Source: a virus. Taken from it: a stretch of DNA of 48,620 bases. The notes beneath the pieces were generated by a model that was given only the letters and a program-made list of their open reading frames with translations, searched no databases and was not told the DNA's origin. The first letter of the stretch is position 1. Each line of letters opens with the position of its first letter. The stretch lies in IMG/VR virus record IMGVR_UViG_3300025012_000017, one strand, 5' to 3'. The position numbers and the translations under genes were made by a program. Positions 44,527 to 45,219 of the stretch are shown in pieces.

Positions 44527-44630
44527 CAATGATTTATAGTTGATATTGCACGATGCACGATCAATGAACAACGACCCATCGACCCTGTATCGTGTACCGT
44601 GTATCGTGTAACCGTGGGCCATTCCGCCAC

Positions 44631-44655
44631 ATTCACCCCGTGAATCTTTACTTCC
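44631..44655 (+). promoter_or_regulatory. Motif copy with perfect dyad (ATTCAC-CCC-GTGAATCTTTACTTCC)
   Basis: Read directly from the sequence. Dyad arms at 44631-44636 and 44640-44645. Confidence 0.7.
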
Positions 44656-44680
44656 TTCTCCTCCTCCTGTGTCACATATT

Positions 44681-44696
44681 ATGAATCTTTACTGGG
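44681..44696 (+). promoter_or_regulatory. Motif copy (ATGAATCTTTACTGGG)
   Basis: 41 nt after the previous copy. Confidence 0.7.
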
Positions 44697-44713
44697 CTTC
44701 CCTTCAGATCCTT

Positions 44714-44736
44714 TTCACGCGGTGAACCTTTACTGG
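44714..44736 (+). promoter_or_regulatory. Motif copy with dyad (TTCAC-GCG-GTGAACCTTTACTGG)
   Basis: 41 nt after the previous copy. One mismatch to the consensus. Confidence 0.7.
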
Positions 44737-44793
44737 AAGTCCGGGTGTTGCTGGCTTGTCCTCTTCTGGGCTCTCACAGCAAAGTTCTTTCTC

Positions 44794-44808
44794 GTGAATT
44801 TTTACTGT
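44794..44808 (+). promoter_or_regulatory. Degenerate motif copy (GTGAATTTTTACTGT)
   Basis: 72 nt after the previous copy and 35 nt before the T tract. Confidence 0.55.
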
Positions 44809-44828
44809 AACTTTTGAACATCTTCTTC

Positions 44829-44879
44829 TTTTTTTTTTTTTTTTTTTTTTTTTTTTTTTTTTTTTTTTTACTATAGAGA
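44829..44879 (+). repeat. Homopolymer T(51)
   Basis: Uninterrupted T run counted from the sequence blocks (44829-44879). Preceded by TCTTCTTC. Confidence 0.9.
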
Positions 44880-44968
44880 TAAAAGTAAGAAATAGCCTAA
44901 TAGAGAGGTAGACAGTAAAGGAGAGCAAAGTAAAGAAAGAGACAACTGGGCAAAGAAGCCAGTAAAGA

Positions 44969-44991
44969 TTCACGACGTGAAACGGTGGGAA
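44969..44991 (-). promoter_or_regulatory. Motif copy with dyad, inverted orientation (sense TTCAC-GTC-GTGAATCTTTACTGG)
   Basis: The plus strand reads CCAGTAAAGATTCACGACGTGAA. Preceded by half-motifs AGTAAG (44894), CAGTAAAG (44923) and AGTAAAG (44939). Confidence 0.7.
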
Positions 44992-45219
44992 CGACCGGAA
45001 ATTACACGTTACACGGTACAGGGTACACCTCTGATTGTTGATGTTTTATACATCATCATGGTGTATCTTTCCAACAATCCACGACGTTTTTAGCCCATAC
45101 ATGGACATGCCCGAACGACAAAACACGCCACAATCGCCCCACGTTGCGTTTAAATGCCCTATATAATGGATGTATCGAACCAAACGCCCAATGCCCCAAA
45201 ACCCCGGCGGAAACGCCGT

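Follow-up and report, generated by a model that had tools for sequence, protein, structure and literature searches.

A conserved palindrome with a homopolymer or TA-rich centre in uncultivated tailed phages: a candidate origin of replication

Virus record IMGVR_UViG_3300025012_000017 is a stretch of 48,620 nt, here called the window, which is regarded as a circular assembly of 48,493 bp because its first 127 nt recur at its end. Between positions 44582 and 45028 (all coordinates are plus-strand positions) it carries an element of about 440 bp that takes the form of an imperfect palindrome around a long run of T's, with short repeat arrays at its flanks. What would a phage use such an element for? 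Comparison with related genomes points to a conserved cis-acting element of widespread uncultivated phages whose genomes of about 48 kb encode a family-A DNA polymerase as well as a portal and a terminase of P22 type. Its likeliest role, which we assign tentatively, is that of a replication origin in the sense of an origin-type unwinding element. The parts of the element and its immediate surroundings are as follows, L numbers denoting relatives.

44582-44616, plus strand: left outer array of about five tandem 7-mers (ACCGTGT/ATCGTGT, corresponding to GTAnCGT units; Tandem Repeats Finder, period 7, 4.9 copies)
44586-44659 and 44954-45027: arms of an inverted repeat, 74 nt, 74% complementary (repeat search)
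44632-44653, plus strand: dyad TTCACCCCGTGAA with 14-mer copy 1, GTGAATCTTTACTT (44640-44653), kept in L004
44681-44694, plus strand: 14-mer copy 2, ATGAATCTTTACTG, kept in L004
44714-44735, plus strand: dyad TTCACGCGGTGAA with 14-mer copy 3, GTGAACCTTTACTG (44722-44735), the 14-mer being kept in L004
44794-44807, plus strand: 14-mer copy 4, GTGAATTTTTACTG, kept in L004
44829-44869, plus strand: unbroken T41 tract, the centre of the palindrome (apical, unpaired)
44870-44959, plus strand: purine-rich right inner arm, 75-85% purine (purine profile)
Starts at 44885, 44915, 44930 and 44962: reversed half-motifs GTAA(A)G (motif positions)
44960-44985, minus strand: inverted full copy 5, GTGAATCTTTACTG (44960-44973), with dyad TTCACGTCGTGAA
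45003-45028, plus strand: right outer array of 3.7 tandem TACACGG 7-mers, the inverse of the left array (Tandem Repeats Finder)
45061-45074, plus strand: degenerate copy GTGTATCTTTCCAA, read by eye
45220-45246, plus strand: copy 6, GTGAATCTTTCCTG (45220-45233), then a short GC hairpin, GGTGCAAGCACC (45235-45246)

The original prediction for this locus, an iteron-type origin or genome-end control element at the point where the two transcription arms diverge, had listed four same-strand 14-mers at 44640, 44681, 44722 and 44794 with spacings of 41, 41 and 72 nt, and these are indeed present. The CGTGTA-type tandem repeat that it noted was recovered as the two 7-bp arrays. Several of its measures had to be corrected: the T run comprises 41 nt instead of 51 nt and begins 21 nt instead of 35 nt after copy 4, and the outer inverted repeat is real, with an extent of 74 nt instead of about 63 nt. 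Reversed half-motifs and an inverted full copy exist to the right of the tract, at positions some 9-10 nt lower than had been given. Folding of the whole 471-nt stretch yielded z = -6.6 as DNA and z = -6.3 as RNA in comparison with shuffled sequences, and the window element reached z = -8.2 against shuffles that were performed arm by arm and kept the composition.

Relatives were gathered by protein-anchored searches and by a blind scan of IMG/VR for runs of T40. The same layout at the same position is found in at least 12 relatives from independent metagenomes (L004, L137, L014, L138, L140, L145, L029, L096, L002/L015, L141, L142 and L143), with flanking proteins that are 38-97% identical, and the conservation of the layout that had been proposed as a check was borne out. 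The blind scan came upon L029 and L096 independently (confirmed by tblastn) and in addition upon L088, which is linked by the sequence of the element. In the close strain L137, 5.2 kb are 99.9% identical and the sole difference is T36 versus T41. L004 is about 90% identical, contains T75 and has kept the four direct copies as well as the inverted copy. More distant lineages, in which a helix-turn-helix (HTH) protein encoded to the right of the element is 59-63% identical, have T54 (L029) and T47 (L096). Further runs are T41 in L140 and T45 in L088, and the L138 contig begins within a run of at least 25 T's. In L002/L015 (50 nt of A and T only), L141, L142, L143 and L145 a TA-rich centre replaces the T run.

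The outer edges consist of inverted tandem arrays of 7-8-mers in the relatives as well, the sequence of which is specific to the lineage:

Window: GTAnCGT
L140: ATGAACA
L029: nnnGCAT/ATGCRCA
L096: CCAAT/ATTGG-type
L002: TGTACAAA
L143: GTGTAAN
L145: GGGTAAC

Close relatives share more than the layout. The right outer array is identical in the window, L004 and L014, inverted copy 5 is kept in L004, L001 and L014 with CCAGTAAAGG...GACGACATG retained in L138, and GTGTATCTTTCCAAC at the site of the degenerate copy (45061) is invariant across the window, L004 and L014. The hairpin behind copy 6 exhibits compensatory changes (GGTGC/GCACC in the window versus GGCGC/GCGCC in L004). Repeats of the type CTT(T)AC / GTAA(A)G recur on the inner arms in the window, L004, L014, L138, L140 and L145; in the clade of the window they read CTTTACT / AGTAAAG. 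Furthermore, in six of seven full elements purines make up 0.28-0.42 of the left arm and 0.72-0.79 of the right, which amounts to a switch from pyrimidine to purine; seven elements, compared with arm-wise shuffles, show dyad symmetry with z = -7 to -11, and the T run lies on the strand that encodes the HTH protein in all seven cases in which both are visible.

The tract itself is genuine and conserved; its length is hypervariable, and assemblies systematically break at it. The length differs from strain to strain and also inside strains, as a homopolymer outside coding sequence would be expected to. A coding frame from 44704 to 44973, which would specify poly-lysine across the tract, was rejected because the tract lengths of 36, 41, 47, 54 and 75 share no frame. 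The L005 contig ends within a run of at least 72 T's, and those of L001/L006, L007 and L014 end at the tract or just past it. Two contigs from different samples and strains (L007:4871 and L014:1) both start exactly at AGAGATAAAA, 5 nt past the T run; chance or trimming may account for this, or it may hint at a physical end or a nick. Other contigs end at scattered points inside the run. L091, with T47 at the end of the contig beside a G10 run, was set aside as a possible sequencing artefact. Since the centre switches between a homopolymer and a TA-rich stretch, the property under selection would be low duplex stability and not a specific sequence, which argues for easy melting, rather than a sequence signal, as the common denominator of all centres.

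The comparison of L029 and L096 is particularly instructive with regard to the repeats. Their HTH proteins hardly differ, and 95% identity is retained over a core of some 300 bp that takes in the T run, so that in this pair the core co-varies with the HTH protein. The left and right outer arrays, on the other hand, have both been exchanged for unrelated sequences, which once more are mirrored between the two sides, and the first leftward genes share only about 40% identity. Both arrays therefore answer to a single specificity determinant that is not the HTH protein, and their concerted change points to one co-evolving binding specificity. A layout that persists while the repeat sequences co-vary from lineage to lineage is expected of a cis-acting site that evolves together with its binding protein.

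The surroundings of the element are those of a tailed phage with two large transcription arms. The plus-strand arm runs from about 46.2 kb across the circle junction to 24.0 kb and encodes the structural proteins including an SU10-type adaptor; the minus-strand arm runs from 45.7 kb down to 24.3 kb and encodes a family-A DNA polymerase (PolA), a DUF3987 primase-like protein, a Sak4-like protein, a PD-(D/E)XK exonuclease, an ATP-dependent ligase and a fusion of ParB-like and methyltransferase domains. The following features matter here:

45307-45738, minus strand: conserved gene for a 143-aa protein without a family or fold match
46193-46221, plus strand: near-consensus sigma-70-type promoter TTGACA-17-TAAAAT upstream of the HTH gene, serving the rightward arm (promoter scan)
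46247-46720, plus strand: gene for the 157-aa HTH protein (HTH matches)
4141-5646, plus strand: large terminase subunit (TerL)
5648-7525, plus strand: portal protein
8365-9447, plus strand: major head protein

The element does not lie where the arms diverge, as had originally been proposed, because the conserved minus-strand gene at 45307-45738 intervenes; the true divergence is at 45739-46246. This gene is real, as it is 93% conserved in relatives and the overlapping plus-strand open reading frames (ORFs) are not. In every lineage it adjoins the element, in one orientation or the other, and is the only neighbour that never changes. Its family comprises 82 metagenomic members without annotation, and no match was obtained in Pfam, PHROG, PDB sequences or Foldseek. 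An AlphaFold2 (AF2) model with a predicted local distance difference test score (pLDDT) of 84 consists of a three-stranded sheet and six helices, and the protein may represent a new fold or a function tied to the element. An inverted repeat of 24 bp (22 of 24 positions matching; 45257-45280 and 45771-45794) brackets the gene, and the homologue is reversed in L029 and L096. Taken together, the repeat and the opposite orientation suggest past or ongoing inversion of a one-gene cassette.

The HTH protein is probably the small terminase subunit (TerS), because in L002, L096 and L139-L145 its gene immediately precedes those for TerL and a portal of the P22 type. Structural support for this identity was not obtained: the AF2 model has a pLDDT of 69, and fold searches returned just generic HTH matches. 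The family includes at least 332 metagenomic proteins, many of them on contigs of about 48 kb. In the window the element lies about 1.2 kb upstream of the probable terS, and in most relatives the distance is 0.5-1.5 kb. It is 4.4 kb and nine genes in L145, where these nine genes (3.5 kb) are located between the divergence point and terS and the element has remained with the 143-aa gene and the leftward arm. In L011 the element is likewise separated from terS. In L144 (1850-1950 and 3782-3991) the corresponding intergenic region holds three tandem CGTCACTTTGTGAATC repeats, and terS has an Acb2/Tad1-like anti-defence gene beside it.

No close deposited phage was found by megablast and blastn of the region or by tblastn of the HTH protein, for which there was no hit at all. 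The best identities to deposited phages are at most 27% for PolA and at most 35% for TerL (range over both 23-35%), TerL being nearest to headful terminases of the P22-like and phiCD27-like kind. A few further properties of the genome may be added. The DNA polymerase (26548-29070, minus strand) carries an N-terminal domain of the uracil-DNA-glycosylase superfamily, the ParB-like N-terminal domain is fused to an N6/N4 DNA methyltransferase (29717-31009, minus strand), and a 1763-aa ORF (18751-24042, plus strand) without Pfam or PHROG match closes the structural arm. G exceeds C on the plus strand across both transcription arms (net +1396); GC skew is unchanged at the transcription switch at 24 kb, where AT skew does flip.

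The 14-mer, with the consensus (G/A)TGAA(T/C)(C/T)TTTACT(G/T), had been taken as the element's own iteron. This did not hold, as copies are distributed over the genome; besides, copy 6 and the degenerate copy at 45061-45074 had been overlooked. With up to one mismatch there are 10 copies in the 48.5-kb circle (about 0.016 expected), six of them inside 600 bp, and with up to three mismatches there are 18 compared to 5.4 in shuffles. Copies beyond the element lie at 24110 (plus), 31525 (minus), 35768 (minus), 41702 (minus) and 47190 (plus), and copies with two mismatches at 15114 (minus) and 26512 (plus). A 5-bp dyad, TTCAC-N3-GTGAA, precedes TCTTTACTG in three copies (44632, 44714 and the inverted one). 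Most dispersed copies share an upstream block, giving the composite ACTGTAAT-N7-RTGAATCTTTACTGG, and upstream of genes a two-block layout ACTGTAAT-N7-...TTTACTGG is apparent. The composite abuts the ribosome-binding sites of the genes at 31511, about 35757 and about 41680; in three dispersed copies a ribosome-binding site and an ATG follow within 7-24 nt, and weaker versions of the motif (at about 4010 and about 10375, both plus strand) precede the genes at 4036 and 10416. A GC hairpin follows the copies at 24110 and 45220. The copy at 35768 is located about 65 nt downstream of a sigma-70-type promoter judged good by eye, and therefore in a leader and not in a promoter. The counterpart of the copy at 41702 is kept in L004 despite differing flanks. 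On this pattern the 14-mer looks like either a binding site for a phage regulator or a component of a phage-specific promoter, reused in the element.

Several observations on the motif stand apart. Two dispersed copies are antisense to local genes, and the copy at 24110 with its terminator-like hairpin sits after the last gene of the plus-strand arm. For the composite motif, functions as promoter, operator or processing site are conceivable. Lineage-specific dispersed palindromic motifs resembling operators occur near the element in L029 (GTCAAAATTTGAC; L029:1080-1092, 1848, 7213 and 11344) and L002 (TCGAAATTTCGA; L002:8104-8121 and 9611-9630), in parallel to the TTCAC-N3-GTGAA dyad of the window. 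A reading of the dispersed motif as an RNA hairpin was rejected upon inspection, as only the 5-bp dyad pairs and the flanking blocks are not complementary. The consensus sites of LexA, CRP/FNR, NtcA, sigma-54 and ECF factors do not fit. The nick site of phage tf is TACT/RTGMC (PMC3517423); TTTACTG(T/G) resembles it just partially, and nicking was retained as a lead alone.

How well, then, is a role as replication origin supported? The element combines repeats on both sides of an easily melted centre within a long imperfect palindrome that is syntenic in relatives, and its repeat sequences co-vary between lineages while the layout persists. An AT-rich stretch suited for unwinding lies next to the repeats in the form of T41 in the window and of a T run or a TA-rich centre in the relatives, and the palindromes are centred on A+T (T36-T75 or TA-rich). 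The phage encodes a replication module (PolA, the DUF3987 primase-like protein, Sak4, exonuclease and ligase), and where inserted genes part terS from the element, as in L145, the latter stays with the leftward replication arm.

A number of results weigh against an origin. Scans of the flanking and replication-arm ORFs with Pfam, PHROGs and NCBIfam revealed no initiator of the Rep, O or DnaA kind. An origin-binding helicase of superfamily 2 resembling UL9 was not detected either; the only helicase-like protein is the DUF3987 protein (24664-25923), which has a DUF3987 / PHROG 'DNA primase' match alone and none in PDB or NCBIfam. The two conserved neighbours, the HTH and the 143-aa proteins, gave no informative fold match. 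The 14-mer is not specific for the element, its copies elsewhere being mostly found beside gene starts, and its spacing is not conserved: copies 1 and 2 are 25 nt apart in L004 versus 41 nt in the window (25/41/72 versus 41/41/72), so that the proposed phasing by whole helical turns is not conserved either. L144 is devoid of an AT-rich centre at the equivalent place. The proximity to the probable terS in most genomes fits a packaging site as well. Cumulative GC skew, suggested as a check in the original prediction, with a maximum elsewhere as grounds for refutation, has its extremes at about 41.5-42 kb and about 48.5/0 kb and not at 44.8 kb, i.e. about 3 kb off the element on either side; GC skew is weak evidence in a phage, and with the extremes off the element and a G-rich plus strand over both arms it is uninformative or mildly negative here. 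The comparative data lend the origin reading additional weight, and the non-specific 14-mers, the position of the skew extremes and the lack of a detectable initiator speak against it.

The element could instead be a pac site at which headful packaging starts, with TerS assembling on the repeats around a central cleavage zone, an alternative that we rate as unlikely. In phage P1, pac is made up of hexamer clusters on either side of the cleavage region. In SPP1, sets of direct repeats surround the cut site (PMC4737164), and the likeness of the SPP1/SF6 and P1 sites to the element extends to short repeat sets flanking a central zone near the gene for the small terminase subunit (PMC4737164). The relationship of TerL to headful terminases, the P22-type portal, the probable TerS and the short distance between its gene and the element in most genomes all agree with packaging. 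So do the identical N-termini of TerS in L029 and L096, which go along with the 95% identical core, and the two contigs that start at the same base 5 nt past the tract. Several of these points have a reverse side. The distance to terS is variable and rises to 4.4 kb in L145, with L011 as a further case of separation. The outer arrays of L029 and L096 differ despite the same DNA-binding end of TerS. A centre prone to melting has no known role in pac recognition, and known pac sites lack a homopolymer or TA-rich core. The identity of TerS itself is derived from synteny without structural confirmation, and other contigs end variously in the tract, just as assembly failure at a homopolymer predicts.

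Another explanation dispenses with replication and packaging altogether and sees the element as a region of transcriptional control or insulation. An early regulator would then act through the 14-mers and dyads, as operators or as phage-specific promoter elements, and the flanking promoters would be activated or repressed from upstream via the 7-mer arrays; the T/A tract would be a device that blocks RNA polymerase or lets it slip and absorbs supercoils between transcription units. We consider this unlikely too. It agrees with the composite motif that abuts ribosome-binding sites and also occurs at 24110 before a terminator hairpin, with the copy kept in L004 at the equivalent of 41702 while the flanks vary, and with the fact that L029 and L002 each have an operator-like motif of their own. 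In L029 and L096 the element is located between divergent sigma-70-like promoters, the arrays lying just upstream of the -35 boxes. Such a position is not found in the window, L140 and L145, however, and a palindrome of about 300-450 bp with a homopolymer of 36-75 bp or a TA-rich centre across lineages is left unexplained, as is the concerted replacement of both arrays. Nor is the T run of the window a canonical terminator, because a GC hairpin directly 5' of it is absent; in L029 and L096 a GC hairpin is present a few nucleotides ahead of the run.

Much less probable is a long structured non-coding RNA, that is a leftward transcript from about 45040 that would form a hairpin of about 440 nt with an internal A41. 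The folding score of the RNA is in line with it, and a weak minus-strand site resembling a promoter, TTGGAA-18-TATAAA (45075-45046), which was identified by hand and overlaps the degenerate copy, is directed into the element. This site is poorly conserved in L004 and L014, and a consensus promoter scan reported nothing in the element, this site included. A known RNA or tRNA was not found in the region and there is no Rfam match; the symmetry is just as strong for DNA, and tandem 7-mer arrays with a homopolymer or TA-rich centre are features of the DNA type. An assembly artefact or a recently inserted miniature inverted-repeat transposable element is scarcely credible: long homopolymers do assemble poorly, many contigs break in the element, T40 runs are common at the ends of IMG/VR contigs and terminal inverted repeats are present, but tract and flanks are internal to the independent contigs L137 (18.7 kb), L004 (49.5 kb) and L140 (48.0 kb), there is one copy per genome, always syntenic and without target-site duplication at its borders, and the layout recurs in divergent lineages although the sequence differs.

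Returning to the origin as the preferred reading, it is plausible by analogy that the element works like origins of the herpesvirus and iteron kinds. It would not be a member of these families, since neither a cognate initiator (Rep/O or UL9) nor origin-specific iterons nor a phage RNA polymerase came to light. In form it appears closest to herpesvirus oriS and oriL, and it also resembles origins composed of iterons and a DNA unwinding element. In herpes simplex virus 1 (HSV-1) and varicella-zoster virus (VZV), oriS/oriL are long palindromes, perfect or imperfect, centred on a stretch of variable length that consists of A and T only. The initiator boxes of HSV are inverted on the arms; in VZV, one flank has several boxes in the same orientation and the opposite flank contains a GA-rich region. 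These origins adjoin replication genes, some of them between divergent transcription units, and they are unstable and hard to clone or assemble. The A+T-centred palindrome is the common trait, and the TA-rich variants (L002, L141-L143 and L145) are the most similar. In place of the viral initiator boxes, the arms of the element bear co-varying inverted arrays of 7-8-mers and an inverted 14-mer as putative protein sites. Unlike its viral counterparts, the element has arms of 130-250 bp with tandem arrays of 7-8-mers and often a centre that is a homopolymer on one strand, which in itself is unable to form a hairpin, and no origin-binding helicase like UL9 was found in the window.

Iteron origins (lambda ori, P1 oriR, P4 ori/crr and theta plasmids) likewise have same-orientation repeats with dyads beside an AT-rich region and a purine/pyrimidine strand asymmetry of the region that is unwound. 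They differ in that the 14-mers of the element are irregularly and non-conservedly spaced and also occur at gene starts, that the element is not located in or beside a recognizable initiator gene, that it is palindromic overall and that its unwinding element would be a homopolymer of 36-75 bp. The primary origin of T7 (the phi1.1A/B promoters and an AT-rich region) and oriF/oriG of T4 come to mind because of a tandem motif that precedes genes and is directed into an AT-rich tract; moreover, outward transcripts from the element would be purine-rich and prone to form R-loops. In contrast to those systems, the motif, at just 7-24 nt from start codons, sits so near to ribosome-binding sites that it is at most a putative promoter, its copies on the left and the right arm face each other across the centre of the element, and family scans that covered all large ORFs yielded neither a phage RNA polymerase nor a promoter-specificity factor like MotA.

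If the element is an origin, it might function as follows. A phage protein would bind the repeat arrays of both arms, candidates being the 143-aa neighbour, a 209-aa winged-helix/coiled-coil protein (42193-42822) and the DUF3987 primase-helicase-like protein. Negative supercoiling, originating in part from nearby promoters, would melt the central tract, and the imperfect arms could pair within each strand and so keep the bubble open. Helicase and primase would enter, the exposed poly-dT and the pyrimidine-rich strands on both sides serving as favourable templates for primer synthesis; with such templates on both sides, the nascent leading strands would be purine-rich in the outward direction. 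The 14-mer with its TTCAC-N3-GTGAA dyad would be a regulator site that is also used beside several genes and would couple origin firing to the expression programme, in the manner of DnaA boxes, the MotA-dependent origins of T4 and the promoter origins of T7. A more far-reaching proposal states that a large clade of uncultivated tailed phages uses a palindromic, oriS-like origin which cannot do without a core for unwinding and primer synthesis made of a hypervariable dT·dA homopolymer of 36 to at least 75 bp or, interchangeably, of a TA-rich stretch, with the 143-aa neighbour and its putatively novel fold as origin-binding factor. We regard this as possible, albeit doubtful.

Limited searches of the published literature brought up nothing relevant on long homopolymers in phage origins, so that the statement of the original prediction that no described phage origin is built on one remains uncontradicted. 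If it is an origin, the element would to our knowledge be without precedent among phages in resting on a homopolymer tens of bases long. The element accounts for the fact that assemblies of these phages break systematically at one place, and the length of the tract in any short-read contig is not to be trusted. The 143-aa neighbour, the 209-aa winged-helix protein, the HTH protein/TerS and the DUF3987 protein are nominated as candidate binding proteins. Should the element prove to be an origin or a pac site, inverted arrays of 7-8-mers, a palindrome with pyrimidine/purine asymmetry and a homopolymer or TA-rich core would together allow a key cis element to be recognized from sequence in phages of a group that is known from metagenomes only and has no cultured relative. 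If the origin reading is true, it would constitute an architectural parallel between the origins of tailed phages and those of herpesviruses.

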